A DNA stretch of 64,000 bases from a virus (lineage: Duplodnaviria; Caudoviricetes). Each line of letters starts with the position of its first letter. Position 1 is the stretch's first letter. The position numbers were made by a program, and so were the translations under genes. Shown here piece after piece: positions 7,594 to 60,348 of this stretch. Location: positions 224,001 to 288,000 of the IMG/VR virus record IMGVR_UViG_2061766007_000586; one strand, 5' to 3'. The notes beneath the pieces were generated by a model, which was not told the origin of the DNA, made no database searches, and saw only the letters and a list, made by a program, of their open reading frames with translations.

Positions 7594-7707
7594 TGAGCAG
7601 AGTAGGACTCGAACCTACATTCCGAGATTACTAATCTAAGTATCTTGCAGTTAATGACCTGAGAAGGACATATTTTTACGTGTTCTCTCCTGTTGAACTA
7701 TCTGCTC
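7594..7707 (-). ncRNA. expanded tRNA-like RNA 2 (~114 nt)
   Basis: GAGCAGA/TCTGCTC acceptor; GTTC/GAAC D-stem; GTAGG-TTCGAGT-CCTAC T-arm; anticodon region replaced. Confidence 0.78.
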
Positions 7708-33674: not shown

Positions 33675-36041
33675 ATGGCTGCAACAACAGTTAAACCTTA
33701 TCCTCATGTACAGATTAACGTGAAAGACAATAGTATCGCTACAATCAATTTTGTAGAGACACTTCCTGTCCATCGCGCTCTGTATGTGATGCGCACTCAG
33801 AAAGGTCCGCTTGGCGAACCGACTTGGTGCAATACGTATTCTGAGGCTGCTGCATTGTTTGGTGCTGAAACCTTCAATCCAGCAAACAAAGAATACTACA
33901 CGCGTGCATCTGCTTTCCTCAAAGAAACCATGACACGCAATGGCGCTTTCATTACCCGCTATCTTCCTGGTGAAGCGTATGATGCTGTTAAGAATCCTGG
34001 TGGTTATAAAGCTGCAACACTTGTTTACGAAGTTGTATTAACTCCTGGTCAAGTCAAGCAGTACAAGCATCTCACCGATGAGCAGGGTAATCCTCTGAAT
34101 TCCTATGAATTAGAATTTAATGATGATACACAGGAATGGCAGAAGAAAGAAAATGGTACCGTTGATGGTATCAAAGTAAGATATCAGACACGTGAAGCTA
34201 CTGCTGACGAACTTGAACAGCTGAAAGCTGGTGAAACGTTAAAGCCTCAGAAGAAAGGCCTTGGCGTTGTTTATCCTATCGCTGTCTTCCGCGCTGCATA
34301 TCCTGGTAACTACGGTAACGATATCGCCATCAAACTGTTCTATACAAGTAAGTCCAATAACGCTGGTGACACTGAAGTCTATGACACAGTGTTCTATCAG
34401 ATTGGTTTCGAAGATCGTGAATACAATAGCACGACTTGGAATGCTATCACTGACGTTTATGGACGCGACAACATGGCATTCTCGGCCAATCCGGATGCTA
34501 TTAATGTCGATTCTGGAAATCCGCTCAGTCTTGACTTTGTTCTTGACAAAGGTTTCTCTGATGCAACACATCAGCTTCCTGTTAACTTTGATATCTTTGA
34601 AAAGAATATCAATGAAGCAGGTCTGGTTATTGCTGCTTATGAAACTGACTATAAGAACAGTGAAGACGATATGTATGCTGGTAGCTTAAATAGCTTTGAT
34701 GATACCAGCAGTGAAATCGGATATCTGAAACAGACTGAAAAAGGTCTCATTAAGACTGCGTTTGAATCTTCTGGTATTCTTTCTGCTCAAAATTGGAAAG
34801 ATCTTGAAGATGCAGAAGAAAAAGATGAGATCAATGGTGTCACTTATAGTCCTGCTACTTATGGCTATCGTGTCAATATCCTTTCTCTTACCAACATGGG
34901 TGGAGAAAAGTATGACAGAGTTGAGATGGAAGATGTGGATGTTTCTGCTTCAAGTAATGGTGTCACCTATGTCATTCCTGGACAGAGCTATCGCATGCCT
35001 CTCACTGGTGGCTATGATGGTGAATTTGTTGATCCGGAAGGTCCTGTCAAGAGTGAACCTGGTACTGATAACGGATGGTCTTCAGATGACAAAGCTATGT
35101 ATCAGTTCTGCAAGCTGAAACTTTCCGGTGCTGGTGATAGAATTGTTGAATCTCTTCGTTATCCATTCACTCATATCTTCGACCTTGGTTTTAGTATCAA
35201 GACGAAGAAAGCTATGTGTGACTTCCTCGATATCAGAGATGATGTCGTTGTAATTCTGTCTTCAGTTGTGCTGTATTCTGATGGCTCTGGCTCCAGCTTA
35301 TCGTTCTTTAATGAACTTGATACCCCCGGTGATGCTCAGGCTAAAGATGAAGCAAATACTGAAACACTTCGTTCGTATGCACTGCTCATGCGTGAATCCG
35401 TTCTGTATGGTACCGATTGCATGCGCTGCTCTATCTACAACCATGCTGGTACTCTGGCAAATGGTTCCTTCAATGGTATCATGCCGTTTACGTACTGGGT
35501 TGCAGTTCAGTATGCTCAGTATGGTAATCTGACCTACATGAATCAGCAAGAGCCACGTGGTCTGCCGAATTCCTATAACCTGCTCTTCAAGAAATGGTCT
35601 TGGAATAACTATCGTGCAGATAGTCAGAGCCGTGTTTGGGATGCTGGTGCAAACTACGTCCAGTATGCTGACATGACGAGACTCTTCTATCCGTCGCTTC
35701 GTACGGTCTATCGTGCAGCTACATCTGTTCTCGTTGATGAATGGTTTGTGGCAGCTGTTGTCTATACGAAGTATGTCTGCCGTCGTGCTTGGGCTACGTT
35801 CTCAGGACGTAACGATTCTGCTGCTGTACTTCAGGGCGCTATCAAGACCTATCTTGATAAAGAACTGAAGGCTCTGTACAATGGTAAATACACATTCGAT
35901 GTCACTGTTTATCAGACTGCAGAAGAACAGCAGTTAGGTTATATCCAGCACGTAAAACTCAGTATCACTGCTCCTGCTACCATGCGTGTACTCGATGTGG
36001 ATATTGAAGTGAACCGTGAAAACTTCGTACCAGAGGAGTAA
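33675..36041 (+). CDS. tail sheath protein (phiKZ gp29-like)
   Basis: QKGP, FGAETF, GGYDG, DLGFS..TK, YPSLRTVY motifs. Confidence 0.9.
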   Translation: MAATTVKPYPHVQINVKDNSIATINFVETLPVHRALYVMRTQKGPLGEPTWCNTYSEAAALFGAETFNPANKEYYTRASAFLKETMTRNGAFITRYLPGEAYDAVKNPGGYKAATLVYEVVLTPGQVKQYKHLTDEQGNPLNSYELEFNDDTQEWQKKENGTVDGIKVRYQTREATADELEQLKAGETLKPQKKGLGVVYPIAVFRAAYPGNYGNDIAIKLFYTSKSNNAGDTEVYDTVFYQIGFEDREYNSTTWNAITDVYGRDNMAFSANPDAINVDSGNPLSLDFVLDKGFSDATHQLPVNFDIFEKNINEAGLVIAAYETDYKNSEDDMYAGSLNSFDDTSSEIGYLKQTEKGLIKTAFESSGILSAQNWKDLEDAEEKDEINGVTYSPATYGYRVNILSLTNMGGEKYDRVEMEDVDVSASSNGVTYVIPGQSYRMPLTGGYDGEFVDPEGPVKSEPGTDNGWSSDDKAMYQFCKLKLSGAGDRIVESLRYPFTHIFDLGFSIKTKKAMCDFLDIRDDVVVILSSVVLYSDGSGSSLSFFNELDTPGDAQAKDEANTETLRSYALLMRESVLYGTDCMRCSIYNHAGTLANGSFNGIMPFTYWVAVQYAQYGNLTYMNQQEPRGLPNSYNLLFKKWSWNNYRADSQSRVWDAGANYVQYADMTRLFYPSLRTVYRAATSVLVDEWFVAAVVYTKYVCRRAWATFSGRNDSAAVLQGAIKTYLDKELKALYNGKYTFDVTVYQTAEEQQLGYIQHVKLSITAPATMRVLDVDIEVNRENFVPEE

Positions 36042-36047
36042 TGAATT

Positions 36048-37040
36048 ATGTTACGTGATCTTGGAAAACCGAATATTGACGATAACAACAACATCGCTCG
36101 TTACATGGCTACGCCAGAAGATGCATGGGGTGTTGGTGTTCAACCGACTGACGGTAAAACTACTATTATCACAGAGGCTATTGGTAATGGTCAACTCGGC
36201 CTTGGCGTTAAAGCTCCGGCTCTTGACGTTGCTACACCTCTTGTGCTCCCGCCTGCGATTATCGTTGTGCTCCAGGTTCCTGCTATGTATACAGCAGATC
36301 CTGCTCGTCCATCCGCTATGGCATTTGCAATCAAAGACATGTTTGAATCTCATGCCAAGAACGTGACTGGTATCGACACGACATACACAATCGATCCTAT
36401 GGGCGATCTTACTCTTGCTGATGGTCAGAACTTCCAGGCTCCTGGTAAGACGAAACGTGCTGCAGTGAACCCTGCATTTACGTTTACTGAAATTACTGGT
36501 AACCTGTACTGGAACATCATCAAGAAATGGATCACAGACATGAACCATCCTGATACCTATGCCATTGGTGCAAACACCTATGTCAATGGTGGCTGGACTA
36601 TGTCTGCTTACTCCATGACGATTGCTGTTATTCAGCCCGATGTGACACAGCGTCCAGAACGTATTATCGATGCATCTATCATCTGCAATATGTTCCCGCA
36701 AGGCACTGAAGGTCTTGGTGTCGAACGTACGGTTTCTACTATGAAGCCTATGGAACGCAACTTCACCTTCACAGGTATTCAACAGCATAATGCCTATACC
36801 AAGCAGATTGGTAAACTCATTATGGAAAAACTGTCGATGCACCAGCTCGACTTCGACTGGGCTCCGCCTCAGAGAGATATCTGGACAGATTCTCTGTCCT
36901 TCGCTGGTCTTGAACTCGATGTTTCGGATCGTCATGACATTTACCCACGTGGTGAAGAAGATGCGAACCGTAACGTTGATCCTAATGCTGGCTATGCAGC
37001 ATATAAGGAAAGTGCCGGTAAAGCTGGTAATAAGCAGTAA
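36048..37040 (+). CDS. tail tube protein (phiKZ gp30-like)
   Basis: FESHAK.VTGID, QPD, NMFP, FTFTG; directly follows sheath. Confidence 0.85.
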   Translation: MLRDLGKPNIDDNNNIARYMATPEDAWGVGVQPTDGKTTIITEAIGNGQLGLGVKAPALDVATPLVLPPAIIVVLQVPAMYTADPARPSAMAFAIKDMFESHAKNVTGIDTTYTIDPMGDLTLADGQNFQAPGKTKRAAVNPAFTFTEITGNLYWNIIKKWITDMNHPDTYAIGANTYVNGGWTMSAYSMTIAVIQPDVTQRPERIIDASIICNMFPQGTEGLGVERTVSTMKPMERNFTFTGIQQHNAYTKQIGKLIMEKLSMHQLDFDWAPPQRDIWTDSLSFAGLELDVSDRHDIYPRGEEDANRNVDPNAGYAAYKESAGKAGNKQ

Positions 37041-37065
37041 TTCTGTTTTAAACCAAAAAAATAAA

Positions 37066-37099
37066 AACACCATGGGAGCTTTAAAGCTCCCATGGTGTT
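37066..37099. terminator. bidirectional palindromic terminator
   Basis: perfect 34-bp palindrome between convergent genes. Confidence 0.8.
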
Positions 37100-37112
37100 C
37101 TCTTTCTGTCGT

Positions 37113-37622
37113 TTAGGCTTTCTTCGTTGGGTTTTTAGGTTCTTCTACACCTATTTCTTTCAGGGTGTAGTTGACGTTTCTGTAGATGATCTTGCATTCA
37201 GCTTTCGCCTCGAAGATTTTGTTCAGTGCATCGTTCACAGAGTGAAGAACATTGATAACTTCTGTATCAGTGTCCGAATTGTCGAATTCGAAATCTTCGA
37301 TTTTTCCCCAGTAGTGGGGCAGGTTGCTGTAAAGATCATGTTTTGCCTGGACGATGAGATGCAATTGCTTCTGAAATTTTTCGAGTCCAAGATACGCTTC
37401 CGAAAATTTCAATCTGATATTGTCATTCAGAGCGAACGATTTTTCTTCCATAGCACGATTGATTTTGATTCGGAGCTGACTTTCCAGATTTTCAAGTTGA
37501 TGAATCAGCTCATTGATCAGCGTAAGCTGAAATCTCACAGAAGCAGATGCTGCACCGAGAAGATCCGGCTGTTCCTTGAAAAAGTGAGTAGCAGGAATGA
37601 TATCGAGTGATACTTTGGCCAT
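37113..37622 (-). CDS. hypothetical early protein
   Basis: 169 aa with own promoter cassette. Confidence 0.75.
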   Translation of the reverse strand: MAKVSLDIIPATHFFKEQPDLLGAASASVRFQLTLINELIHQLENLESQLRIKINRAMEEKSFALNDNIRLKFSEAYLGLEKFQKQLHLIVQAKHDLYSNLPHYWGKIEDFEFDNSDTDTEVINVLHSVNDALNKIFEAKAECKIIYRNVNYTLKEIGVEEPKNPTKKA

Positions 37623-37624
37623 AA

Positions 37625-37695
37625 GTGTTCTCCTTGTTAAGGTTTGAGGTTTATCATTGGAGCAATATATATGCGTAAATATTCGAAAGTCACTA
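37625..37695 (-). repeat. early promoter/SD cassette, copy 1
   Basis: 67/71 identical to 61697-61767; contains TATATTGC and AAGGAG. Confidence 0.9.
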
Positions 37696-37696
37696 G

Positions 37697-38110
37697 TTAG
37701 TTGTTAACGAAGTGAGTGATAACGGCACCAGCGGCAAAAGCGCTGAGAATCAGAATAGCAGAAACGACCTTGACAGTGGTCTTTTCTTTGATAAGTTTTT
37801 CAGCAGTGAAATGAAGATTTGCAATGGATTTCTCATGCATTTCATTGTTGTGTTTCAGAATTTTGTTTTCCTGCTGAAGTCCCAGAATCTGTTTTTCAGT
37901 CAACTCACGATTGGCATATTCAGCAGCTTGTGCAGCATTGAGCCAATCAACAATTTCGAGTTGTTCGTCTTTGCTCATGGTATCCCATGTGGTTTTGTAA
38001 TAGTAGGGATCTTTTTTATCAAAGAAATTGATCCTGCGATTCAAAATAGGAACAGCATTGGGATAATCCGTGATGTAGGTTCCGTCAGATGTGATATTGA
38101 TTGTACTCAT
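37697..38110 (-). CDS. tail-anchored coiled-coil protein (paralog of next gene)
   Basis: P.YY.T.W...Q.E....L block; C-terminal TM helix. Confidence 0.78.
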   Translation of the reverse strand: MSTINITSDGTYITDYPNAVPILNRRINFFDKKDPYYYKTTWDTMSKDEQLEIVDWLNAAQAAEYANRELTEKQILGLQQENKILKHNNEMHEKSIANLHFTAEKLIKEKTTVKVVSAILILSAFAAGAVITHFVNN

Positions 38111-38121
38111 TGTTGTTCTCC

Positions 38122-38553
38122 TTAATTATTGGTCACGAGATAGGTGATAGTAGCACCAGCCGCAACTACACCAAGAGCCAAAACACCAGTGATGATTTTG
38201 GTGATTTTGAATTTCTTGTCAAGTTTTGCGTGTGCTGCTTTCACAGTTTCCAGTGATTGTTCCGTTTCTTCCAGTTTGCGTTCAGTATCCCGACATGTTT
38301 CGAAAAGCGCAGCATAGTACTTTTCGAGATTCTGTTTCTCTCTGCGCCATGTTCCTTCGTTCTGACGAAGATAATTGATGAGCTCCCACTGATCTTTCTC
38401 GTTGAACTGATTCCACTTTGTCTGATAATAATCAGGCTCAGTCGGATGATCGAACTGAATGATGTTCTCGTATCCGTTGACACACATTTTGGTGATCACT
38501 CCAAGCTGATTGCGGTCGAGTTCGTGCGTGATTTTGTGAAGATCGATGTTCAT
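38122..38553 (-). CDS. tail-anchored coiled-coil protein
   Basis: same block and TM helix; TATATTAC at 38592-38599. Confidence 0.78.
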   Translation of the reverse strand: MNIDLHKITHELDRNQLGVITKMCVNGYENIIQFDHPTEPDYYQTKWNQFNEKDQWELINYLRQNEGTWRREKQNLEKYYAALFETCRDTERKLEETEQSLETVKAAHAKLDKKFKITKIITGVLALGVVAAGATITYLVTNN

Positions 38554-38630
38554 AGTGATTCTCCTTAAATTGATTTGGGTTTATTGCCTTCGTAATATAT
38601 ACGTGATATTTTTCCAAAAACAAAGAAAAA

Positions 38631-38660
38631 CAGTACACTGCACATATGTGCAGTGTACTG
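38631..38660. terminator. palindromic terminator after portal
   Basis: perfect 30-bp palindrome. Confidence 0.75.
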
Positions 38661-38665
38661 AAATT

Positions 38666-41600
38666 TTACATAGGAATGTTCGGCATTCCACCGTTCTCAG
38701 GATGAGAAACTTCTTGGTTTTGACCTGTTTGTTCTGCAGGTGTCGATGTGCCAGAAGATGCATTTCCACCTTCCATATTCATATCAGCTCCAACATCTGG
38801 TAATCCGCCAAGATCACCACCTTCATTGTTGAAACCACCGCCTGCTTCACTACCTCCAGGCATTCCACCCATGTCTCCACCAGGTGCACCACCCATACCA
38901 AAGTCTCCACCCATACCACCTGACATATCACCGCCAGTGGTATCAACCATACCTTCGTTCTCGACACGATTACCAAGATTAATCTTGTTGGCAACCTGTT
39001 CCTTATAGTTATCCATACCTTTCTTCTGGTTGATAACAAATGCAGGAACATCGTAGAGATCGACAGTATCAAGTTGATCAAGTGTCGGAAGATCAAAGGT
39101 ACTATTATATCCGACCTTCTTGATAAACTCACGAACAAGTTGAGCTTTTACTCTAGCACGGAACATACCAAGTACTCCGTGATAAGCTGAGTAATCGTCA
39201 GGAAGAAGTGCATCACTATACACTGTATCCACAACAGAGCTAATACATTGTGTAAATGCATTGATTTCTTCTGTCTGGGCTTTATCAACTACGATACGTG
39301 GCTCAGGAAGTTTAACAAAGATATTATCAATAACAGATTGTAACTGCTCATTGATATCGTTCTTATTTGCTTCAATAACAGTATCTGATTTTGGTGGGTT
39401 TGTATCTTTCTCACGAATCTTCTTAGCTTTCTTCTCAGCTTCATCTACTTGTTTTTCAGAGAAAGACTGAGCTTCACTAGAAGAATCTTTTAATTTCAGA
39501 TTATCTAATTCATCTGGAGTTTCAGGAGCATCAATTGATTCTGATTCCTGATTTGAATCACGATAATCTTTATTTGAGGTAGATAGTACACCGAGAATCT
39601 TATCACGAAGAATCGTATTATATTTTACATAAGTACGAATCAGCTTTGTCGTTTGTTCGTTAACATCTTGCTGTATAATTTTAACACGATTATTAAAGAA
39701 TAAGTTTGTTGTAACAACACTACGAGCAAAGTTTTCTTCACCGATTTGTGTGACAGCAGATTTCGGAACTTTTAATGCTTGGATAATCCAATCGCCTAAT
39801 TGATTTAAGAGATTATCATCAGGAGCAATAGAACCAGTTGATCTATGTTCTGTTGTGATATTTAATCCATCTTGTAAACCTTTAATTCCTTTTGGAACAA
39901 TGGTTAAAGATTTTTGAATTAAATCTCTTTGAACATTAAGAGGATTATTATCGTATCTCATGATACGTTTTTCTGTAAATGCGTTTTTGATTTGTTCCAT
40001 CAATTGCTGTGCATTTACATTCATATCGCCAACATTCATTTCTACAATCTTGTTATCAATGCTGTTTTCAGTAGCAGCCATGATCTGAGATGTAACTAAT
40101 GTTGTTCTAAGTCCGGTTAATGTTCTGATATCTTCGATTAATGATTTACCTGTACCATCCTGGTGAACATTAAATCTGTAATACACCATCATTGGTTCTG
40201 GTACAAAGATTAAACCAATTCTGCGACTATCCAGCATGTTTCTCATGAGGCAAGTTGTAACTGCTTCATGCTGTTGAATCTGTGTTCCGCCTAATCCATA
40301 TTCTTCAAGCTTATGTTCCATGAAGTGTCTAAGGATATTACCAAAGATCATAGAAGTAGCTTTGAAGTGTTGAATTGGAGATCTTTCACTTGTTAAGATT
40401 GTGCTAGGTACACCAAACATTGCATGCATGTTCGATTCTACTAATCTACTATTTGCATTCATATCGTTCATATCGCGATAGTCTGGATTAATAGGTTCAC
40501 CCCATTGATCGACTAATACGAAATATCCGATATGTTGATCTGGTGCTCCAGGAACAATAACAGGAATAACACACTGATAAGGAAGTTCTACAAGAGCTGC
40601 AGCTTCCACTTTCTTATCTGATTTATCACTATTAATAGTGTAAAGAGGTGTAGGACTATTGATAACAAATTCTTTATCAATATCTCTCTGCATTTCCATT
40701 AGTCTCGAACGGATATCTTTTCCATGTTTTGAAATAGATCCTGGATCTCTCGAGAACATAATGTAATTTTTACTCTTCTTAATGAGCTCAGAGATTTCAG
40801 CTTGGAATTTCTTTCTATTATCACCAATGTTCTTTACATATTTGTCATCAATAAAATCTAAAGATTCAAGACCAGCAAGACAATCATTGACGGTTTGTTC
40901 AACCATAGCTTTATAGTCTTCTGTCTCAGCTTCAAGTTTTATTGATTCAAATGATGCTTGATATTTTTTAGCATCTTTAACTTCAAGAGTTTCACCGGAT
41001 ACAAGTTTCGCCTTTTCTGGTCTCTTTGTTGGTTTAATTTCAGAACCAGGACCATTGATGTAACCAGCATATTCCAAATCATTTAATTTACGTAATGTTT
41101 CGATATTAGACTGTGGGAGAATTAAGATAGGCGTGGCACCAGTCTGATAAAGGGCGTTACCAATCCATTTACTCAAACGTTTTGGAAGCTTTAATTCATT
41201 ATTAATATAGTCTGATAGGATTTGAGTTAATTCAGATTGAGTTTCATCAGGAAGACTCTTATCACAAACTTCTATATTAATTGCATTAGTTTGTAAATCA
41301 ACTGGAGATAAAATAGAAGCAACCATGATATCTTTAGCTGCTTCAATTTCTGGTGATAAAATATTAGTTGATTTTGATTCACGTTCCCAAGCAGCAGCAC
41401 GAAGTGAAGTAGATGATAGATAATCATACAAACTACTAGGACTTGTGTTGTGCTCTAAGAACCCACGCATGAATCCTGGTTGATACTTTAACTCGTCAGG
41501 ATTATATGCGAAAAGATTAATTTTCTTTTCTTTTTGGGTTTTTGGACGATTCGGCTGGAACGAAATACCAAGGAGCTTAAATAATCTTCTTGCTCCACGA

Positions 41601-41818
41601 ACAGGAATGATGTCTTGTGGGAAAAGACCATTGGATGCATGTGAAACATCTGGTGTTCCACCACCCATTCCGCCCATTCCACCAAGGCCCATATCTCCAC
41701 CCATTCCCATGCCACCACCGCCCATGTCTCCCATACCACCCATTCCTGCAGTAGGATCAGCAGGTGGTAAACCGAAGCCATCAGCTTCAGCTGAATATTT
41801 GTTTTTTGCTTTAGCCAT
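38666..41818 (-). CDS. portal protein (phiKZ gp129-like)
   Basis: SILSP, VIPV.VPG.P..HIGYFVL.D..G.PI, GTGKSL motifs; divergent from gp128-like gene. Confidence 0.82.
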   Translation of the reverse strand: MAKAKNKYSAEADGFGLPPADPTAGMGGMGDMGGGGMGMGGDMGLGGMGGMGGGTPDVSHASNGLFPQDIIPVRGARRLFKLLGISFQPNRPKTQKEKKINLFAYNPDELKYQPGFMRGFLEHNTSPSSLYDYLSSTSLRAAAWERESKSTNILSPEIEAAKDIMVASILSPVDLQTNAINIEVCDKSLPDETQSELTQILSDYINNELKLPKRLSKWIGNALYQTGATPILILPQSNIETLRKLNDLEYAGYINGPGSEIKPTKRPEKAKLVSGETLEVKDAKKYQASFESIKLEAETEDYKAMVEQTVNDCLAGLESLDFIDDKYVKNIGDNRKKFQAEISELIKKSKNYIMFSRDPGSISKHGKDIRSRLMEMQRDIDKEFVINSPTPLYTINSDKSDKKVEAAALVELPYQCVIPVIVPGAPDQHIGYFVLVDQWGEPINPDYRDMNDMNANSRLVESNMHAMFGVPSTILTSERSPIQHFKATSMIFGNILRHFMEHKLEEYGLGGTQIQQHEAVTTCLMRNMLDSRRIGLIFVPEPMMVYYRFNVHQDGTGKSLIEDIRTLTGLRTTLVTSQIMAATENSIDNKIVEMNVGDMNVNAQQLMEQIKNAFTEKRIMRYDNNPLNVQRDLIQKSLTIVPKGIKGLQDGLNITTEHRSTGSIAPDDNLLNQLGDWIIQALKVPKSAVTQIGEENFARSVVTTNLFFNNRVKIIQQDVNEQTTKLIRTYVKYNTILRDKILGVLSTSNKDYRDSNQESESIDAPETPDELDNLKLKDSSSEAQSFSEKQVDEAEKKAKKIREKDTNPPKSDTVIEANKNDINEQLQSVIDNIFVKLPEPRIVVDKAQTEEINAFTQCISSVVDTVYSDALLPDDYSAYHGVLGMFRARVKAQLVREFIKKVGYNSTFDLPTLDQLDTVDLYDVPAFVINQKKGMDNYKEQVANKINLGNRVENEGMVDTTGGDMSGGMGGDFGMGGAPGGDMGGMPGGSEAGGGFNNEGGDLGGLPDVGADMNMEGGNASSGTSTPAEQTGQNQEVSHPENGGMPNIPM

Positions 41819-41856
41819 TTTATAGCCCCTAAAACTACCCTTTACAGAGGTGAAAT

Positions 41857-44800
41857 ATGATTCAGCTTAACATGTATCTTAATGAGTTAACAAACTTTTT
41901 AAGAACAATTACGATTAAAGATACGCTCATTGCTGAACAGATGCTAAGTGTTTGGGTACAAGATGAATTTAAGGAATTAGTTTCTAAAACAATCACTGCT
42001 CATCCTTATTATAGAAATATAATGGGTGAGTACATATTGTTTGATCATAAGGAAGTAATTCCTATCGTAAAAGACATGCTAGATAACGGTTGCTTATTCG
42101 ATATCATTGAATCAGATAATACTGTTATATCTTCATCAAATATTAAAAGAAAATATGGAGAAGAAATTGGTTCACAAGTTATAAATATAATTGTGAGTCA
42201 AACTCTTCACTACATCTTTCCTTTATCCACAAATCTTTCGTGGTTTGATGATAGCATTTCCTATACATTAACTCGTACGGTTCCAAACAAACTTCTGTAT
42301 TATAAACACAATACAGTTCCGTCTGTCTATAGCTATGATACAAAAACCAAAATTCTATTCATAAAAGAATTTCTTTATCGCGAATTTTCTGAAGTTAAAT
42401 TTCCGACAACTCTTGATGAAACAAAATTCTCTCATGAAGTGATTCTTGCGTATCAAGATTTCTTGTCCGGTAGTATTATCTCACCTGATGACAGAGAACC
42501 ATATTTTGGTTTAACGTTCAAAACGCATGATAATACTAGGACGATCTATAGGATACCGCAGACCAGATATAATACTTTATTAAGTAAATATCCGTATGAA
42601 ACAGGTGTAATCCATGCAGTTGCTTACTCTTATCCTGCCCAGTTTGAAACAGGTAGTATGAGAAGCAATATTAGATTGGCATATACCAAATTACAAAATA
42701 GCGAAAACTTTGCACTTTTGACTTATGATGATTCTTTATTAGAAAAATCAGAAAGACAAAGTATTGTAGACTGTGTTTCTAACACATTAGATATGATTCG
42801 TAGGCGTTATGCTGTAGAAGGATTCTGCTATGAGAATCTTTACGGTGCAGCGCATTACTATCTCGTATGGCAGATTCTTTATCTTTCTGTTTTTGTTCAA
42901 AGAATTACGAACATCCGTACAGGATATGCTCATACGTATCATATCTGGAGATATTTAAAGTCTCATGGTTTTGAAGATTACCGTGATATTTTATCTATTA
43001 TTCAACAAAAGTTCTTATACAAAAACTTACCTTATTTAAATAAGCATAAAGGTACGCAACATGCATTAGAACTACTGGATTATGTTTTGTTAACTATGAA
43101 ACATGTATCCTTACAGGGTAAAAACTTAATGCAATCTACTGTGGATGATTTATCTGAGGAAGATGAAGAAATCTATACAGAAGATACAGCAAAGAAATAT
43201 CCTTCAGTTCGTTCTATTAAGGTTGCTGATGTTGTTCATCAAGAAATAAGCGAAATAAAAGAAAATCCAAAAAATGGATTTGAAAAAATCTTACATCATC
43301 TTGGTGAAAATGCTGGTTTAACTAAGATCAATGATAAACAAGAATATGAAGCTGGTAAGATTGAAAAAATCGATGAGCTTTATGAAAAAGAGCGTGAATC
43401 TTTTTTAGAATATCAAGATGATTATTTATTTGAGAAGTCTACGGATCGTCATACAAAACTAATTTCGTATGCTCCTACTTCTCACATGAATACAAAGTTC
43501 TTAGAATTAAAAGATACTTCAACTATTTCTGACTTAATTACAATTTATACACAATTCTGTGCAGAAACTATTCTGTATCTAATCAGTCAAGATAGATTGA
43601 AATTTACAATTCCAATTCAATTAGTTAACAGTTCTCGTATTATTACACTACCAGCTGCTGACTGGATTGGTATGCTGTTTTATGCTCTTTATCGAATTGA
43701 TCATGTTCGTCAAGAGAAAGCAAGTGATACAGAAGAACTGTATTACTATACACATCCTCCAAAATACGCTCAGCTGCAGATGCCATTAAAGCTAGACAAA
43801 GTTAAAATGTTTGACACATTTAAATGGCATTATCAAATGTATCGTACCAATACTTATTTAACAAAAGAAGTTGGTACGTATTATCTGAATATTGATGAAG
43901 ATTTTGCAATATTAGATAGTAAAGCATTGGAAGAAAAAGATATAGCAGCAAAAGGTCTTAACTTCATTCTGAGAAGTACTTCTTTAGTAAAGCCAGAAAA
44001 TCGTGTTTGGATTTGTATGCTGTCAACTGGAGATGCATATACACTTTGTTATAACGATCATTTCTCATGGTGGAATATCTTAGACAAAGATCAGAATATC
44101 ATTTTCCGTACAGCGAAAATGGCTTCATTTAACAATGATTTACCCAAGTTTACCTGGTTCAAAAGAACAGCTACAACATCAGGTTATAAAGAACAAAAAA
44201 TCTACGGAATGAGATTTGCAAAATCAAATTCTAAGTATGATGTTGAGGTGTTACTAACGCCGCAATATACTACATTCTTTAGTTTAAATACTTTAGTGGA
44301 AGAATTAGATCGTCAAGGTCTAAATTATCTTACATTGTATTTAGCTGCAACACATGATGAATCTGCTGTACATCGTTGTCTGTATGATAAGTTACTTGAA
44401 ATTTATTGTATTGGAAGAAAAGAAGATAAGCAAGGTAATCCTGAGTTGTATGACATAAGTAACATCTTTGATGGTGAATCTTTTGATGCTTTCTTATCAC
44501 GTGGTATCACACAAGGAAATGAAGATATCAGAGCATTACAATTAGTCTTAGAGAGTTATGATGAAAGTAATGATGTCGATACGTTATATAGTCGTATGAT
44601 TGATACGATTATAGAAAGTATGTTCCCTGAAGATGATATGTTCTTAGCAGTAGGTATATTAAGTAGGCAAGAACGCATTAAACGATTAATGACTCTGTTT
44701 AAATCTTTAACTGCGTATAATCTTGCTTATCTTAATCCAACTTGTAACGAGATTCAAGACACTATGCTTTCTTATCATGTAAGTAGTCCTTTATCCACTT

Positions 44801-52521: not shown

Positions 52522-55500
52522 TCATATATCAACTAAATTAATATCTAAATGCATCGCTGTCAGCCATACTTGACCAACAACAGCAACACGTGTTCTATTC
52601 ATAGGATCTAACTGGTTCAGACTAACTTCACCAGTTTCTTCTAGTGAGCGTTTGAACTCAGCGTAGTTATGAATATTACCGCCACGTACATTTGCTAACT
52701 CAAATAATGACGCATTCAGATTTCTTGCGTGGAAGATCTGGATCTGAGGACTTGTAAGTGAGCAACATTTTGAATCACCTGAAACCTGACCAGATAATCC
52801 GTCAATAGTTTTATCATTATCAGGTACAGATAACTTTTCATCTAAGAACTGTTGCTGTCTACGAACAGGTAACTGAACAACTAAATATTCTTCAGGAGTT
52901 AGATACTTAATACCAGTGTGTTGATCACGCATCCAAAGTCTGTGCATAAGTTTAACGCCTAAGGCATGTGCTGCATTAACCATATCTTTGCTACGTAATG
53001 TAACTTTGAATGGTGGTACATACATGTGGACATTTTCCTTATGCTCTCTTATATTGTGCATGAAATTATCAAAGTCTTTATCAGACATGGTATCAAATTT
53101 CTTCTTCCAGTAAGAAGTATTGATATCAGTATTTGGATCCAAAAGCTTCATTGCCTTCAGAATGTAATCCTGAATCTTCTTACGCTTAATTTTCATTTCA
53201 GAAGATGTCGCTTCTGTTGAAACTTCAAGAGATTCTGTAGCATACATTTCAGCACCAACAGCTTTCGTATATTTATAATCTTTCATGATCTTGATTACAA
53301 CCGGTTTGATAACGTCTAATGATATTTCGCTTCTTAATTTATTCTGAATAGCACGTTCTTTTGCAAATGCTCTAGTATAAATAGAATCTTCATTTTCATC
53401 ATGACGTTTATTTTTGTATTTCTCTAATGTTTCAAGAACACCTATAGAAATATCATCAACCGTTTTGTAATGATGTAATCTTTCCCACTTTTCAGGTTGA
53501 TCCGTTTTATCATGACCTTCTAAGATCCAAAGTGTAGGACGAAGACAGATTTCATAATAAGACGTTTGTGGGAATCCACGATCGGCATATGCAACAAGAG
53601 CACTTAATCCTTCTAATGTACCAATCTTAATATTCTGTGATTTTCTCCAAGAATGACTATGTTGGAGAACAGCTTTATAAATAGCTTCCAGTTGCTCTTC
53701 TGTAAAAATGTTCAACTTTGGAAGTTCTTCTTTTGCTAACTTCACTGAAATAAGATTGTGATGAGTTTCTGGTGTTTCTTGTTTATGACCGATATCATGA
53801 CAGACTATAGCTGCATATTCAACATCAGTTAAATCTTGTTTACCTTTTAATACATAAGCAGTTGCTAACACTTCTTGAATATGGTTTACACCATGAGATC
53901 CAACAAGATCGTAATACTTCTTGCATACATCCCAGATGCGTCTCTTATTCTGATTATTAGCGAACTGCGCATTAGCATAACTAGCAGGCATACCTTCTGT
54001 ACTGATTGTGATCTTCTGATCTGTATTAGGTTCAGGAAGTGTAAGTTCGTTATGTTTTAGTTCATGTTCTTCACGGTATTTGTCTACAATCTTAACACAT
54101 TCTTCCACTGTGAGTTTGTCAAAGAATTTGTTCATCTTTTTGATTTCATCTTTATAATACTCTCTATAGAGTTTAGGATAAATCATTTCACCATTGCTTC
54201 CATAGATTTTAGACATGTATTTAACAACATTTTCCATGTTTTTATCATGGTCAGTGCATCCATGTCTTAATCCCCAAACATAGGATTTGTTTAAAATCCA
54301 TGGAATGTCTGGAGGATTTGTATCAGCAGATGCTAACAAATCTGATAGTTCAGATGAATGAAGATTCTTTGGATTGGTTGTTTCATCGTGTTCAAGAATA
54401 GCAACACAAATATCTTCAATTTCTTTCTCAGAGAAGAAACCACATTTCTTAAGATCTGGTTTAGCAATTTCAACACCCTTAAGTCCATGACCATCTTTCT
54501 TAGGATATATAGATTTACATCCACTATCGTGATAAAGAATGGTAGCATATTCTTGTAGTGTAAGATCACGATGCTTAATCGCTTTCGTCAGAAGAATTCC
54601 ATTAGCTATGTCATGTTGAACATGAGCCCAGGAATTAGCTCCTTCAGGACGATAGTGTGGTTGAGCCATACTGTTTAGAACACGTTGTTCATGTGTATCA
54701 TTCAGTAACACCATTCCTTCAAATGAAGATGCAATTGAATATTCTTCATTTGAATTCTTTTTCTTATCAGATTTTTCATGTTCTTCTACAATAGCATCGA
54801 ATGCCATTGCAGATTCATTCATTATGTCTTCCATTCGTGTTGAAAGATTTCCGCGATCACCAGTATCAAGGACAAGAGAAATAATGTCCACAGGACAGTC
54901 TTGACCAATACGATGAACTCGGTCGGAAGCTTGTTCATAATCTACACTTCTCCACGGTTTGTTTAAGAAAATAACACGATTTGCTGCTGTTAAAGTAGCA
55001 CCGGTTGAGAGGGTTTGTAGAGAGGCGATTAATGGATTATAACTAGGATCTGTTTGGAAGAGTTTAGCGAGTGGTGCGATTTCACTAGAATTCTTACCAT
55101 AAATCACAATAGGTTTATAACCTAATGATTTGACATAGGCTTCACATGTTTCAATTGTATCAACAAAAGAAGTAAAGATAATTGTTTTCTTTTGAGCTTC
55201 TTCTATCAGCTTTTGAATATCCGCTGCTTTCAGCATAGCTGATGTCATTTCAATACGAAGTTTACCAAGGAATTGACCTAGTACTTCACCACGTATCTTT
55301 AAATGCAAATATTTAATTGCTGCTTTACAATGTCTAAATTTATGAAGTAATTCGGAAGTAAATTGTTTTTCAACAACTGTCTTCTCATAATTATTTGCCC
55401 ACGCTATATCAGGATCACCATGCTCAAACTGACCATGATTGTGAATCAGTTTCTTTATAATCTGCTTATAACGTTTAAAATCAGGATCGTCTGCTATTTT

Positions 55501-58500
55501 AGATTTCTCTAAGAATTCCATGCACTCTATAAATTCTTTTCGATATTCTTCCATATGCTCACGATGGTATTTTAAACGTTCTTTAATGTATAATTCCATT
55601 CCTTTTCTTACTTCTTGCGTGGTATACTTATCACCATTTGGAAGTTTTATTTTAATAGTCGTACGAGTCTTAGGTGGAAGATTCAAGACTTCTTTTGTAA
55701 CACGTGCCATAACACCGTGCAAACGTGCATTGAGTACATCTGTTGCAATTTTCACATTGTAACCAAATGTATTCTTGAAGATGGTAGCAGCTTCTTCATC
55801 AAACATTGGGTCCAAAATATAAAGCAGTGGAATCATTTCTACACCACAAGCTTTAATCGGAGTTCCTGACATCAGTAAGATATCTGTTTTATCTGAAGCT
55901 TTTGCTAAGTCAATTAACTTTCTAGTACGACCAGATTGAATGCGTAAGAAGTTATGGCTTTCATCTACAATTACACCCATGTTTGCTGTTTTCACACCAG
56001 CCATGGAATTCATCTTGTCAATAGCATCGTAATTGAAGATACAGAATCTTTGACCTTTGAATTCTTTATCTACACCAGACACATAAATCGATTGTTCTGC
56101 TTTATAGAATTTTTGGAAGTGATTCTTCCATGTTTCTACCATTGTATTCTTAGGACAGATTACTACAACACGATCTTTGTTCAATGCTTCCATCAAAGCA
56201 ACTGATGTAATTGTTTTACCTAATCCCTGAGAGAATGATAACAGATAACCACGAAGTTTATGAGAATCTTTTAAGTCAGCGTAATCTTTAATAAATTTTT
56301 CCTGATGAGGATAAAGATTACAATTCAGATTTCGATAAACACGATTGATATCACAATCTGTATGAGTTTTTGGTTTTTCACCAATCCATGTATCTTTTCT
56401 TAAATGATCCACAATGAATGGAACCATTTTGAATTTCTCTAATAAGTAGATTAATTCAGGAACAAAGAACTTATGGATTTTAATAGTACGAGTATTTGTG
56501 AACCAAGTTGTAATACCAATCGATCGAATGATCTGAAGAAGATTTTCTAACTTAGTAGAATTGTAATGCTTTTTGAGTCTATGAAAGAAAGGATATACAG
56601 GGAAGCTTCTTATGATGTAATATTTACCAGCATCCATAACGAGCTGATAATCCTCAGTAGAGACTTCATCTGTAACATCAGGTATGTATTCTAGACTTTC
56701 AATACCTGCATATTTATTTCCTTTTGCTTCCTTAGCAAAGTTCTCATCATATTTCCTATGCCAGGTAATATGAATTTTTATTTTCTTATCAACTGGAAGA
56801 GGACTATAAGAAACAAACAAATAGTCATTCTTATCCTTTGGTGTAGAGAAATATAATTTATCAACACAGTTTTCAGTTTTAGTGCAATAAATGAATCCGT
56901 CATTTTCACCAGATGCTTCTTTCAGATCTGGATCATTGTGAACAATCTCTACATGTTTAAAAACTGTATTACTATCTTTTGCTTTGTCAAACTCTACAAA
57001 GTGTTCACGATAATCTGGCTTCTTAGAAGCATGACCTTTCATGAATTGTGCACAGTGTAGACTTGCCAAGCCTAACGTACGCTCCATATATACTACAGGA
57101 GCTTTAATGTCTCTGTTTGCTCTATTCTTACAGAAATGAACAGCAAGCTGATTGATGTCTAAGTCTCTATGAGTTCCATGATACAGATACTTACCGAATT
57201 TCTTGCGGATATCTGCAGGAATCATTTCTTTCTTAAAACCTTCAGTTGAATATTCTGTTCCATCTGGTTCAACATGAACCTTATCCATATAGAAAGATCG
57301 TATTTCACCGTAGATGGTAGAAGCTAATTCTTCTTGCTCTTCATTTACACTAAATGAAATTAAAGCACTTTTACTAAGTTCGTCAGTATGGTGTGTTGCT
57401 GCTAACTCAGCCATGTAAAACACAAGAGCCCAGGTAGGCATGTTGGTCGGATCCCAGAAATCAGGATACGAATACATGCTTTCTCTTCTCTTTGCTTCTA
57501 ACGATGCTAATTGTGTTTGAACATAATTATCAACAAAGAGATCAAATGAACTTTTCAGTTCAACAGGAGCATATTGTTTTACAATAAATGGAGAATAAGC
57601 AACGATTTGTTCTATACTGAGAAGATTCTTATCATACTGTTCTAATGCCTGTTTAATTCTAACATCATGAGCCCAATCTTCATTTGAATGTGCTTCAAAA
57701 TAAGTTTGAGCTAACTTTTGAATAAAGACATTACAACGAACCATATACTTAATATAGAACTCATAAATGGAGCGAGCAATAGCTCCAAGCTGAGATCTAT
57801 CGTATTGATTTACTTCTACTGTAGATAACTCATCTGTGAGTTTCTCAGATGGAAGTTTAATACGATTAAGTATTTGTTGTAAAACAGTACTCTTTTCTAC
57901 TTTAGCATTCTGGAAGAATTCAGTAACTTTGAAAGAAGCATCTTTTTCCCATTCGGGATAAGCTAATTTAATTTCGTGGTGATCACCAATATTAAGATAA
58001 TTCGTGATACCTTTTGAAAGAGCTTCAGCTGCTGCTGCAAGATCTTCTTCTGACCAAGTTACATCAGAGAGGGATTCCATGTCATTCAGTTCTTCCACTG
58101 ATCCTTCTCCTTTTCGTTTAATTTCTTCTTCAGAAGATTTACATACCCAGTTAACTGTAACTGGTTCACATTTCATATAGTCAACATCACCTTCAATAAC
58201 GAATTCAACATCACTATTTGTATTCTTATTGAACATGTGACATTTGTCTTTGTATTTGGAAAAATCAATTGTGTAAAGATATCCAGTAGATTGACCTTTG
58301 AATGGTTTAAATCCTCTGATATTCATCTCTACACCAATTTCATTTGGTATTGAATAAAGTTCAGAAATAGGCTTGTTCCAAACATCATAACCAAAATTAC
58401 AACTTGTAACTTTCTTACCAAGTTGTTTTTCTATTCCAGCTAAGATATCTTTTTTATTAATTAAGAAGCAAGCTACAATTCCTTTACAAGGAGTAACAAA

Positions 58501-60348
58501 TACATTACCTTGTTCTCCTGACCAAGAACCTGTTTTACTTCCTAATAGTTTATCATACTTTTCAGGACCAGAATGATAAACTAAGTTATTCTTAATATTT
58601 TTAGAAACAGCCGCATTAATTGCTTCAGTTGATTCAACTGTTCCACGATATCTTCTATTATAACGCATACGACAAGCTCCATCTGATGTAGATTCTTCGA
58701 CAAAGCCTACCTTCTTATATAAATTCTTTGCAGCAGTATTGTTTTCTGCAACATTGATGTAAATGTTTTTATCTTGGTATTTGGTTTGCATAGACACCAT
58801 AAACTTCTTCAATGCTACAAATCCAACACCTTGTCCTTGAGCTTGTTTAAAAATAGCAAAGTTAGTAATAAACAGATTCTGTGGATTAAATTGTAATACA
58901 CCAACAGGATGGTAAGTTTCAGCAAAACTACGTTCTGTATCACTAGCTTTGTATTGCTTCTGAAGGAAGAAATAAACATCAAGTTTACTACTTAATATTT
59001 TTTTCTTAACTTCTTCTTTCGTCCATGTTTCATCTTTAGATGCTTTAGCAGCCAAGTTTACAGATTCTGTAATGAGATCCCATTGTTCATCCGTAATATC
59101 AGTTGCTTTATAGATGAAGATATCATCAGCCACCCACTTATGAATCATTTCTTCATTAGAATCTTTTTGTATCATTAATGTAAGAACAGCAATTTTATCA
59201 TATTTAGATAAAAGCGCAATTTGATCTTTAGTGAGTTCATTGTAGTAAGGATGATCTTTAATGTTTGTAATTTCAAGACGATTTATTACTTTGTATAATT
59301 TATTCCATGGAGTTTGAACAATATCTCCTTCATGAAATTTATTATAATCAGAACTTACTCTAGTTGTGATGATACGATCCTGTTTACTAATTGTTTCAAT
59401 TTCTTCTTTCGGAAAGGTAATGGTACTATACTCATTCATAAAAGATTCTTTTGAAACATCTGGATTGACTTGAGCAACACGATGTCGTTCAGCTTGTGCT
59501 ACCATCATGTTCCAAAATTCAATCATACATGTACCATCTACAGGTAACTTCTCTATGATTCCAGAAAAAGCTGATCTCTTCCAACTATTGGCACAAGCTT
59601 TTGTGATCCATTCGATTAATTCTTTATCTGTTTTAGCATGCCAATTGTTATTTTTAAATGATCCCCAAGAACCTTCAAGCCATTTCCATTCATTGTTCTC
59701 TTGATAGATACAAGTTAAATGGGTTGGATGATCATTACATTTGTTTCCACCATCCCAGAAGAAAACAACTTTATGCGGTATTTTCCATTGGGTTAAGAAA
59801 TGATCACTCATAATAGCAGTGTCGTAGCACACACCTTTTTTATGAAGAATCAAACTCTTATAAGTTCCTGAACGCCAACATTCATCTTCATCTTTATCAG
59901 GACGAACATCTCTTTTATCGATAACAAATCCATATTCAACTATTTTGTAAAAAGCTTTTAAATCATTAATAGATTTAAAATCACTAACAGTCCATGATTT
60001 GGTTTGATTTAATGCTTCTTCAGATTTTCTTAGAGGATAGTTTATTTCATCTTTGCCAGGTTTATCCACTTTATACTGAGGAAGTAAATAATCATAAAGT
60101 TTTTTATTGGTATATCCAAATAATTCTTTACATTTAGCATCTGACTTTTGTTTCATTTCATCTGTCATTAACTGCCAGTTTTGCCAGATGCGCATGAGTT
60201 CTGTTTTGGTTGGTTCTCTATGAATTAACTCTATACCGGTTTTCATTCTCCAACCATGAACAGGATCATGTTTTAATTTTTCTATGATTTCTTCTGAATA
60301 GCCATGCTTTCGCATGTCTTCTTCATTGTAAGGAGGTTCGTAAGGCAT
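52522..60348 (-). CDS. 2608-aa multidomain polyprotein ending in virion RNAP beta C-terminal subunit (phiKZ gp149-like); includes SNF2 helicase, 2 HD, GNAT, transglutaminase-like and 2 ART-like domains
   Basis: single open frame; motifs GLGKT/DESH/SGTP/QASDRVHRIGQ, YHD/CHD, QGQGVG, GVCYD, LPVRRQQQ...GQV.GDSK...VRGG. Confidence 0.85.
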   Translation of the reverse strand: MPYEPPYNEEDMRKHGYSEEIIEKLKHDPVHGWRMKTGIELIHREPTKTELMRIWQNWQLMTDEMKQKSDAKCKELFGYTNKKLYDYLLPQYKVDKPGKDEINYPLRKSEEALNQTKSWTVSDFKSINDLKAFYKIVEYGFVIDKRDVRPDKDEDECWRSGTYKSLILHKKGVCYDTAIMSDHFLTQWKIPHKVVFFWDGGNKCNDHPTHLTCIYQENNEWKWLEGSWGSFKNNNWHAKTDKELIEWITKACANSWKRSAFSGIIEKLPVDGTCMIEFWNMMVAQAERHRVAQVNPDVSKESFMNEYSTITFPKEEIETISKQDRIITTRVSSDYNKFHEGDIVQTPWNKLYKVINRLEITNIKDHPYYNELTKDQIALLSKYDKIAVLTLMIQKDSNEEMIHKWVADDIFIYKATDITDEQWDLITESVNLAAKASKDETWTKEEVKKKILSSKLDVYFFLQKQYKASDTERSFAETYHPVGVLQFNPQNLFITNFAIFKQAQGQGVGFVALKKFMVSMQTKYQDKNIYINVAENNTAAKNLYKKVGFVEESTSDGACRMRYNRRYRGTVESTEAINAAVSKNIKNNLVYHSGPEKYDKLLGSKTGSWSGEQGNVFVTPCKGIVACFLINKKDILAGIEKQLGKKVTSCNFGYDVWNKPISELYSIPNEIGVEMNIRGFKPFKGQSTGYLYTIDFSKYKDKCHMFNKNTNSDVEFVIEGDVDYMKCEPVTVNWVCKSSEEEIKRKGEGSVEELNDMESLSDVTWSEEDLAAAAEALSKGITNYLNIGDHHEIKLAYPEWEKDASFKVTEFFQNAKVEKSTVLQQILNRIKLPSEKLTDELSTVEVNQYDRSQLGAIARSIYEFYIKYMVRCNVFIQKLAQTYFEAHSNEDWAHDVRIKQALEQYDKNLLSIEQIVAYSPFIVKQYAPVELKSSFDLFVDNYVQTQLASLEAKRRESMYSYPDFWDPTNMPTWALVFYMAELAATHHTDELSKSALISFSVNEEQEELASTIYGEIRSFYMDKVHVEPDGTEYSTEGFKKEMIPADIRKKFGKYLYHGTHRDLDINQLAVHFCKNRANRDIKAPVVYMERTLGLASLHCAQFMKGHASKKPDYREHFVEFDKAKDSNTVFKHVEIVHNDPDLKEASGENDGFIYCTKTENCVDKLYFSTPKDKNDYLFVSYSPLPVDKKIKIHITWHRKYDENFAKEAKGNKYAGIESLEYIPDVTDEVSTEDYQLVMDAGKYYIIRSFPVYPFFHRLKKHYNSTKLENLLQIIRSIGITTWFTNTRTIKIHKFFVPELIYLLEKFKMVPFIVDHLRKDTWIGEKPKTHTDCDINRVYRNLNCNLYPHQEKFIKDYADLKDSHKLRGYLLSFSQGLGKTITSVALMEALNKDRVVVICPKNTMVETWKNHFQKFYKAEQSIYVSGVDKEFKGQRFCIFNYDAIDKMNSMAGVKTANMGVIVDESHNFLRIQSGRTRKLIDLAKASDKTDILLMSGTPIKACGVEMIPLLYILDPMFDEEAATIFKNTFGYNVKIATDVLNARLHGVMARVTKEVLNLPPKTRTTIKIKLPNGDKYTTQEVRKGMELYIKERLKYHREHMEEYRKEFIECMEFLEKSKIADDPDFKRYKQIIKKLIHNHGQFEHGDPDIAWANNYEKTVVEKQFTSELLHKFRHCKAAIKYLHLKIRGEVLGQFLGKLRIEMTSAMLKAADIQKLIEEAQKKTIIFTSFVDTIETCEAYVKSLGYKPIVIYGKNSSEIAPLAKLFQTDPSYNPLIASLQTLSTGATLTAANRVIFLNKPWRSVDYEQASDRVHRIGQDCPVDIISLVLDTGDRGNLSTRMEDIMNESAMAFDAIVEEHEKSDKKKNSNEEYSIASSFEGMVLLNDTHEQRVLNSMAQPHYRPEGANSWAHVQHDIANGILLTKAIKHRDLTLQEYATILYHDSGCKSIYPKKDGHGLKGVEIAKPDLKKCGFFSEKEIEDICVAILEHDETTNPKNLHSSELSDLLASADTNPPDIPWILNKSYVWGLRHGCTDHDKNMENVVKYMSKIYGSNGEMIYPKLYREYYKDEIKKMNKFFDKLTVEECVKIVDKYREEHELKHNELTLPEPNTDQKITISTEGMPASYANAQFANNQNKRRIWDVCKKYYDLVGSHGVNHIQEVLATAYVLKGKQDLTDVEYAAIVCHDIGHKQETPETHHNLISVKLAKEELPKLNIFTEEQLEAIYKAVLQHSHSWRKSQNIKIGTLEGLSALVAYADRGFPQTSYYEICLRPTLWILEGHDKTDQPEKWERLHHYKTVDDISIGVLETLEKYKNKRHDENEDSIYTRAFAKERAIQNKLRSEISLDVIKPVVIKIMKDYKYTKAVGAEMYATESLEVSTEATSSEMKIKRKKIQDYILKAMKLLDPNTDINTSYWKKKFDTMSDKDFDNFMHNIREHKENVHMYVPPFKVTLRSKDMVNAAHALGVKLMHRLWMRDQHTGIKYLTPEEYLVVQLPVRRQQQFLDEKLSVPDNDKTIDGLSGQVSGDSKCCSLTSPQIQIFHARNLNASLFELANVRGGNIHNYAEFKRSLEETGEVSLNQLDPMNRTRVAVVGQVWLTAMHLDINLVDI

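Follow-up and report, generated by a model that had tools for sequence, protein, structure and literature searches.

In an uncultured phiKZ-like jumbo phage (IMG/VR virus record IMGVR_UViG_2061766007_000586), a single gene encodes a giant polyprotein in which ten modules are chained to the C-terminal part of a virion RNA polymerase (vRNAP) beta subunit, here termed betaC, with a Ser-x-Glu (S-x-E) motif at every joint. The gene occupies positions 52522-60348 on the minus strand of the window, that is, of the whole stretch of 64,000 nucleotides analysed here (bases 224001-288000 of the 318,604-bp record; CheckV completeness 100%). Taken together, sequence comparisons, junction statistics and the presence of a suitable protease suggest that betaC probably carries the modules as cargo into the prohead, where a gp175-type protease would cut the linkers, and that the freed modules would then be injected into the host.

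The region 52522-60348(-) is one uninterrupted open reading frame (ORF) of 2608 aa (302 kDa) and comprises 11 modules (M1-M11, all on the minus strand), in agreement with a first-pass annotation of the window, which had described such a frame as a chain of about ten effector domains joined to a vRNAP subunit; ten modules do lie upstream of the C-terminal betaC. Judged by its gene content, the source genome is that of a phiKZ-like jumbo phage. Its products include homologues of the phiKZ prohead protease gp175, of gp176, of the vRNAP proteins gp178 and gp180 (located elsewhere, apart from the polyprotein ORF) and of the portal protein gp129, as well as a phiKZ-type major capsid protein that was identified via PHROGs (phrog_3231); a tblastn search of the genome with the phiKZ capsid protein gave no match.

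The C-terminal module M11 (residues 2380-2608; 52525-53211) is a betaC of the phiKZ gp149 and SPN3US gp218 type. Residues 2386-2606 match phrog_3233 ("RNA polymerase beta subunit") over profile positions 2-223 of 225 (E 2e-63), and residues 3-224 of phiKZ gp149 align with polyprotein residues 2388-2606 at 31% identity (E 2e-34), full-length matches that bear out the assignment to gp149 made in the first-pass annotation. The whole genome contains one phrog_3233 match, so that this is the sole copy of betaC, coded as the last 229 residues of the 2608-aa ORF and not as a stand-alone gene of ~225 aa. A second virion component is found further upstream in the same chain: M8 (residues 1233-1877; 54718-56652), which ends in the double site SNE1866-1868 and SFE1875-1877, carries Pfam SNF2, ResIII and Helicase_C matches at 1343-1815 and matches phrog_62 (E 6e-82). 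Residues 22-640 of phiKZ gp203 align inside the polyprotein at 33% identity (E 3e-96), which is their sole match in the genome, and by this alignment M8 is the orthologue of the phiKZ head helicase gp203. In phiKZ, gp203 is proteolytically processed, packaged in the head and bound to the packaged DNA (bioRxiv 10.1101/2025.11.23.690004), and a role of the head helicase alongside the vRNAP has previously been suggested (bioRxiv 10.1101/2023.02.24.529968). Both betaC and the gp203-type helicase occur in this 100%-complete genome only within the polyprotein ORF. In phiKZ and the other cultured phages examined, by contrast, they are separate genes, as the first-pass annotation had stated for phiKZ: betaC matched 290 phage records in stretches of ~640-680 bases, a query spanning HD-HD-betaC likewise matched 290 phage records only through its betaC portion, and the helicase is a gene of ~700 codons.

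The fusion is not confined to one genome. Independent assemblies in ENA, Logan, JGI and NCBI supplied 103 relatives with lengths of 413-2874 aa. Three of these relatives are near-collinear with the polyprotein (89-97% identity, the best local alignment covering 60-86% of the query). The remaining relatives are built from the same modules in differing numbers and order, and they add modules that are absent here, namely DUF5662, a SET domain and ~25 rare ones. For example, the architecture M1-TGase-ASCH-GNAT-ART-x-ART-SNF2-HD-HD-betaC of the polyprotein (TGase, transglutaminase-like; ART, ADP-ribosyltransferase-superfamily; x, the uncharacterised M6) is replaced by DUF5662-ART-TGase-M1-HD-SNF2-ART-betaC in P0015 and reduced to TGase-betaC in P0104. 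Variable cargo on gp149 homologues of related phages, proposed in the first-pass annotation as a comparison, is what these relatives display. Their sole element of fixed position is betaC, which is C-terminal in 101 of the 103 relatives, while the other modules are found anywhere along the chain; a common N-terminal leader was not found among the 104 family members, each of which begins directly with its own first module.

An exhaustive profile search yielded 932 betaC homologues. Among the 232 proteins sampled from them, 137 are extended at the N-terminus by more than 60 aa, 94 stand alone, and one is extended at the C-terminus. The latter, P0201 (791 aa), is the sole case among those sampled in which betaC stands at the N-terminus (residues 2-220), followed by 570 aa. 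Within IMG/VR, the fused forms are the closest relatives of the betaC studied here and the more distant ones are stand-alone. Among cultured phages, a megablast search with the polyprotein gene and a tblastn search with residues 1-1300 gave no match, and the fusion was seen in none of the phage records. That the fusion merely results from assembly or gene calling having joined adjacent genes, a reading raised by the metagenomic origin of the record and for which no support was found, is barely conceivable: it is not an assembly artefact because near-collinear homologues of 89-97% identity come from independent assemblies, and ~135 other N-terminally extended betaC proteins of likewise independent origin as well as the lack of any internal stop codon over 7.8 kb speak against such an error.

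The joints between the modules were located without reference to the motif. In order to avoid circularity, module borders were set solely from the end points of BLAST high-scoring segment pairs between proteins of differing architecture, which placed those of the polyprotein at 114, 307, 394, 573, 753, 1047, 1224, 1864, 2116, and 2366. An S-x-E lies within 13 residues of the border at 10/10 of these positions, where chance would give 2.4 on average; in 200,000 permutations ten was never attained (p <= 5e-6). Moreover, S.E is the best of all X.Y patterns at these ten borders. The first-pass annotation had listed S-x-E sites at every inferred domain boundary; the listed positions are all present, and the claim holds for the independently defined borders. 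In total, the polyprotein contains 26 S-x-E versus 12.3 expected by composition, with the density inside modules equal to the compositional expectation and no sign that the motif is avoided there.

The same preference is evident across 311 non-redundant junction windows, for which all 400 X.Y patterns were compared. Here, S.E ranks first both by count (299) and by enrichment (7.8-fold over interiors, which answers the question of enrichment raised in the first-pass annotation in the affirmative), whereas L.E is not enriched (0.98-fold). S.E is present in 68% of the windows and [SAG].E in 77%. Alignment of the sites on the motif reveals V/P at P4, S at P3, T/L/M at P2, E at P1, A/S/G at P1' (57%) and L/I/F/M at P2' (63%), i. 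e., an extended logo V/P-S-x-E|A/S/G-hydrophobic in which P2 varies while S and E are fixed. The joint in front of betaC is particularly uniform, as [SAG]-x-E is present in 89/89 distinct contexts (with S in 80, A in 8 and G in one), the Glu standing 2-19 (mostly 7-13) residues before a conserved KRKK that aligns with gp149 residue 3. A betaC released at this Glu would therefore be approximately of gp149 size. In more distant fused proteins, [SAG]-x-E precedes betaC in 30/35 cases versus 31% of random windows, the five exceptions being two T-T-E and three V/I-D-L-E. Internal copies of M1 start directly after Glu, and in AlphaFold2 (AF2) models of M1 and M7 the sites fall in disordered tails.

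The Ser codons at 15 sites belong to both the TCN and the AGY family, so that what is constrained is the protein sequence, as opposed to a joint in the DNA. A fixed DNA recombination site at the junctions was accordingly considered and rejected, given this mixture of codons and the lack of a common nucleotide motif. The first-pass annotation had further suggested that Met residues shortly after several sites are retained start codons of captured genes. This part was not borne out: Met is enriched only at P2' (9% versus 2.8% background), which fits the hydrophobic preference at that position and does not support retained start codons, and the residue before betaC is not Met in the relatives.

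These junction data bear directly on the alternative that the polyprotein is an intact polyvalent protein, i. e., an uncleaved multi-enzyme chain, packaged or cytoplasmic, whose S-x-E linkers are spacers of a flexible, acidic or polar kind that were passed on along with the modules. There is precedent for this scenario in some polyvalent proteins, the N4 virion RNAP among them, which are packaged unprocessed (PMC5512222), and it would be consistent with the junction windows that lack [SAG]-x-E as well as with the interior motifs, which occur at compositional expectation. However, spacers of this kind would leave unexplained why one gapped dipeptide ranks first of 400 with S and E fixed and P2 variable, why the P4, P1' and P2' preferences resemble known prohead-protease sites, and why the junction logo recurs in the capsid propeptide and at the end of a protease domain (see below). 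We thus consider an intact chain unlikely and regard the linkers as probable cleavage sites.

The presumed processing enzyme is encoded in the same window. ORF 19778-20572(-) matches phrog_3014 (E 3e-32) and is 27% identical to phiKZ gp175, a prohead protease of MEROPS family S80; its His85, Ser153/156, and Asp180 align with identical gp175 residues, so that the gp175-like gene reported at this position in the first-pass annotation is indeed present. In the homologous gp245 of SPN3US, the catalytic triad is H77/S153/D178, and this enzyme cuts after A-X-E with a preference for Val at P4 and Ser at P1' (PMC10052503). A junction-type site, PSIE199|S, is situated at the end of the catalytic domain of the protease and aligns with PALE210|N of gp175. 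It is comparable to AQE-203, at which SPN3US gp245 autocleaves, the autocleavage position in phiKZ being taken by analogy with the SPN3US site.

A position-specific scoring matrix (PSSM), which was built only from the flanks of the relatives' junction sites and ignores the fixed S and E, separates most junction sites of the polyprotein from its interior S-x-E (flank score of STE2377, 6.9). In the rest of the genome it detects 46 high-scoring sites versus 18.6 +/- 4.3 in shuffles. Among these is VSFE71|AF in the major capsid protein, which also contains PAQE157|AF (flank score 4.4), the latter near the position of the E163|N164 cut of the phiKZ capsid protein (PMC11297242), a match that is only approximate because the N-terminus cannot be aligned with that of phiKZ. 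The pattern is not general to long proteins of this genome, since two other giant ORFs outside the window, at genome positions 33900-42134(+) (2744 aa) and 984-7679(-) (2231 aa), contain S-x-E at compositional expectation and almost no high-scoring sites. Within the 2744-aa ORF, the stretch SLQTSFEAVSTD is repeated exactly, starting at residue 1758 and again at 1815.

Cleavage could in principle also be brought about by another enzyme, for example by a ClpP-like protease, by self-processing through M2 or by a host protease after injection. A ClpP-like ORF, 19101-19766(-) (phrog_1827, E 5e-36), adjoins the gp175-like gene, a CLP_protease gene lies near the homologous polyprotein P0072 on another contig, and self-processing has been proposed for metallopeptidase domains of polyvalent proteins (PMC5512222). 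M2, however, is present in only ~27 of the 103 relatives while the junction motif is universal, and S/A-x-E| is the documented specificity of gp175/gp245-type enzymes and recurs at the end of the gp175-like protease domain, which makes a different enzyme very unlikely. The ClpP-like protease itself might act as a further protease of the head, or its function might be unrelated.

Based on these observations, we propose the following scheme, in which cleavage, the function of betaC as a carrier, and the retention, injection and activities of the modules are all inferred. The gene encodes a precursor whose ten upstream modules, each folding independently, make up a giant N-terminal extension of the essential betaC. 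This precursor would join the other vRNAP subunits, and the complex would be built into the prohead together with the attached cargo. In SPN3US, the five vRNAP subunits have to form a complex to be taken into the prohead, and all five are missing when betaC (gp218) is lost (PMC5694885). The gp175-type protease would then cut the disordered linkers behind the Glu of the V/P-S-x-E|A/S/G-hydrophobic sites and thereby generate a betaC of about gp149 size and up to ten separate proteins, which would stay in the head, enter the host with the DNA, and act there in early transcription, host takeover, or counter-defence. Since only the C-terminal anchor and the linker motif would be needed, related phages could freely acquire, drop, duplicate, and rearrange modules.

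Another scenario is that the N-terminal chain is a disposable propeptide, which is degraded or expelled (as scaffold, chaperone, or space-filler) or acts only in assembly, and that betaC alone is delivered. All identified cleavages of gp245 substrates, self-cleavage aside, do yield N-terminal propeptides, and in 201phi2-1 a propeptide of 275 aa is removed from the N-terminus of vRNAP beta, at TFE-275 (PMC5694885). On the other hand, the modules are conserved and folded with their catalytic motifs kept (GNAT, SNF2, HD, YHG[ST]), the M8 orthologue gp203 of phiKZ stays bound to DNA in the mature head, and the set of enzymes corresponds to the one seen in injected polyvalent proteins. A disposable chain therefore appears distinctly unlikely, and we favour modules that are retained as cargo.

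Several points nonetheless weigh against cleavage, packaging and delivery as proposed here. About a quarter (23%) of the junction windows lack [SAG]-x-E, and in P0151, P0154, and P0156 (611-1563 aa) V/I-D-L-E takes its place before betaC; these three may represent a subclade with a different protease specificity or without cleavage. In the polyprotein itself, the junction sites at 397, 1218, 1866, and 2382 score poorly on the flank PSSM. The correspondence of the capsid site with the phiKZ cut is approximate, as described above, and the direct neighbourhood of the ClpP-like and gp175-like genes leaves a second candidate enzyme. The vRNAP subunits of SPN3US are not processed, and the compatibility of a ~300-kDa precursor with vRNAP assembly is questionable. 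T4 and phiKZ heads often degrade or expel the propeptides they remove, which makes retention of the cargo uncertain. Finally, the phage and its relatives are known from sequence alone, and every cut is a predicted one.

The nature of the remaining modules was assessed by profile searches and by structure prediction. Folding was done on single modules, and MAFFT applied to multi-module alignments misplaced fragments, with identities far below those in BLAST. Pfam backs the calls of GNAT, SNF2, and HD domains in the first-pass annotation: M4 (residues 400-575, ending in STE573-575; 58624-59151) is a GNAT acetyltransferase (PF00583, E 3.7e-7 at residues 470-549; Pfam span 470-552), and M10 (residues 2119-2379, ending in the cluster SLE2373, STE2377-2379, and SSE2382; 53212-53994) is an HD phosphohydrolase (PF01966 at 2155-2237; also phrog_3921). 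The second HD domain called there, M9 (residues 1878-2118, ending in STE2116-2118; 53995-54717), proves to be a paralogue of M10, with 25% identity over its full length (E 5e-14) and the H..HD motif kept.

Likewise, the two ART-like modules are paralogues. M5 (residues 576-768, with the double site SVE750-752 and SEE766-768; 58045-58623) aligns with M7 (residues 1037-1232, with SLE1218-1220 and STE1230-1232 in its linker; 56653-57240), and both have YHG[ST] and GY.Y motifs, which are conserved in an alignment of 31 M5/M7 sequences; with respect to a catalytic triad of the H-Y-E or R-S-E type, this alignment has no invariant Glu. An AF2 model of M7 (predicted local distance difference test, pLDDT, 82; residues 1218-1232 below 50) was compared with 48,161 PDB representatives by the VIA wide structure search. 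The best matches were of the Tpt1/KptA type (Z 8.0, root-mean-square deviation 2.5 with 85 residues aligned, and Z 6.4), followed by Arr (Z 6.0); ADP-ribosyltransferases or related NAD-dependent toxins make up most of the top 50 matches listed. Foldseek returned no match for M7 at E <= 0.001 (best E 0.016), and the comparison with Pfam Arr-ms gave E 0.051. On the VIA search with the predicted model and on the sequence motif, M5 and M7 are assigned an ADP-ribosyltransferase-superfamily fold, in line with the first-pass annotation.

Other domain calls were retained only in part. M2 (residues 112-301, ending in SKE299-301; 59446-60015) may be transglutaminase-/papain-like as had been suggested: PF04473 (DUF553) matches seven homologous fragments (best E 0.0013), the polyprotein itself reaching E 0.11. 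For M3 (residues 302-399, ending in SNE397-399; 59152-59445), protein-atlas features offer a lead towards the proposed ASCH/PUA-like fold (score 0.90 to clusters with PF04266 ASCH in 33-61% of members), and a Pfam scan gave no match. M6 (residues 769-1036, ending in STE1034-1036; 57241-58044) was delimited by module clustering, occurs in only 7-9 relatives, gave no family match, and is uncharacterised. M1 (residues 1-111, ending in SEE109-111; 60016-60348) is a small domain found in 24 relatives at 51-99% identity, compared to mostly ~30-60% in BLAST for adjoining modules. Its AF2 model is all-helical (pLDDT 91) with the final 3 residues disordered; no clear match was obtained in the PDB (best Z 4.7) and no meaningful match by protein-atlas features, the shape matches being segments of viral proteins of 700-960 aa. 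The effector roles assigned to the modules are guesses from folds.

Further junction-type sites occur in genes near the protease and elsewhere. The unannotated ORF 18293-19123(-), which adjoins the protease genes, contains STE26 and SLE36|AF (flank score 8.2), and the equally unannotated ORF 16272-18014(+), also adjoining them, has five strong sites; from these sequences, both are likely processed head or internal proteins. The portal homologue 38666-41818(-) (phrog_3004; phiKZ gp129) starts with a long Gly/Met-rich low-complexity stretch and contains the junction-type sites GLE316-318|SL and SSE780-782|AQ.

On a broader scale, a large uncultured jumbo-phage clade may have turned betaC into a general loading dock, in which enzymes placed upstream via a V/P-S-x-E|A-hydrophobic linker are packaged, cut, and injected, a generalisation for which we judge the prospects to be evenly balanced. 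If true, these phages would carry a plug-and-play set of early effectors subject to rapid recombination, and the fusion of gp203 and gp149 homologues, by which the polyprotein ties the enigmatic head helicase to the virion polymerase, would indicate that the helicase travels and works with this polymerase in early transcription or DNA entry. This touches on two open questions of the field, namely how nucleus-forming jumbo phages choose and load their many injected proteins, and by what means their DNA is protected and expressed until the phage nucleus is in place. Sequence is all that is needed to apply the rule suggested here, in which S-x-E linkers are combined with a polymerase subunit at the C-terminus; it would predict injected enzymes across hundreds of uncultured phages, and the candidate early effectors catalogued here comprise ART-fold, GNAT, HD, ASCH-like, transglutaminase-like, SET, and DUF5662 modules. 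Should cleavage be confirmed, linker and anchor might serve, in laboratory phage-host systems, to bring proteins of choice into phiKZ-type capsids.

Several known systems resemble the polyprotein in individual features. The maturation of phiKZ, 201phi2-1, and SPN3US heads by gp175/gp245 proteases involves a homologous enzyme, sites of the S/A/G-x-E class with similar P4 and P1' preferences, and cuts N-terminal of the retained product; the known substrates (e. g., gp162 and gp53), unlike the chain described here, are single proteins with one propeptide or few fragments. Group 1 Bacillus jumbo phages are known to have an HD-betaC fusion in their vRNAP (Iyer et al. 2021, PMC7824862). This fusion has one extra domain, with no reported protease-site linker or shuffled cargo, and was not detectable by sequence search from the polyprotein. 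The internal proteins and Alt of T4 parallel the proposed mechanism in that cargo enters the prohead, is trimmed by the head protease after Glu, and is injected; however, T4-type cargo relies on an N-terminal targeting leader and [LIV]-x-E sites of gp21, whereas the polyprotein family has no shared leader, relies on S-x-E sites, and is fixed only in its C-terminal polymerase subunit.

A further resemblance is to the polyvalent proteins (Iyer et al. 2017, PMC5512222), which also combine many unrelated enzyme domains (ART, GNAT, SNF2, and others) in variable architectures and for which delivery with the DNA has been proposed. With its 11 shuffled modules, the polyprotein has the 2-15 unrelated conflict-type domains and the variable architecture that define this group. 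A Pfam-only search of the polyprotein and five diverse relatives found no zincin-like MPTase, MuF, ArdC-N, or similar anchor or processing domain, remote versions of which are possible. In contrast to polyvalent proteins, the fixed element here is a C-terminal fragment of a multisubunit RNAP and a prohead-protease motif is found at every joint, while the published concept does not include head-protease processing between all modules; we found no published description of a head-protease-delimited cargo polyprotein anchored by a C-terminal split-RNAP subunit. Judged from its domain composition and joints, the polyprotein thus fits the polyvalent-protein concept, to which it would add two new elements, a C-terminal split-RNAP anchor and a head-protease site at every joint.

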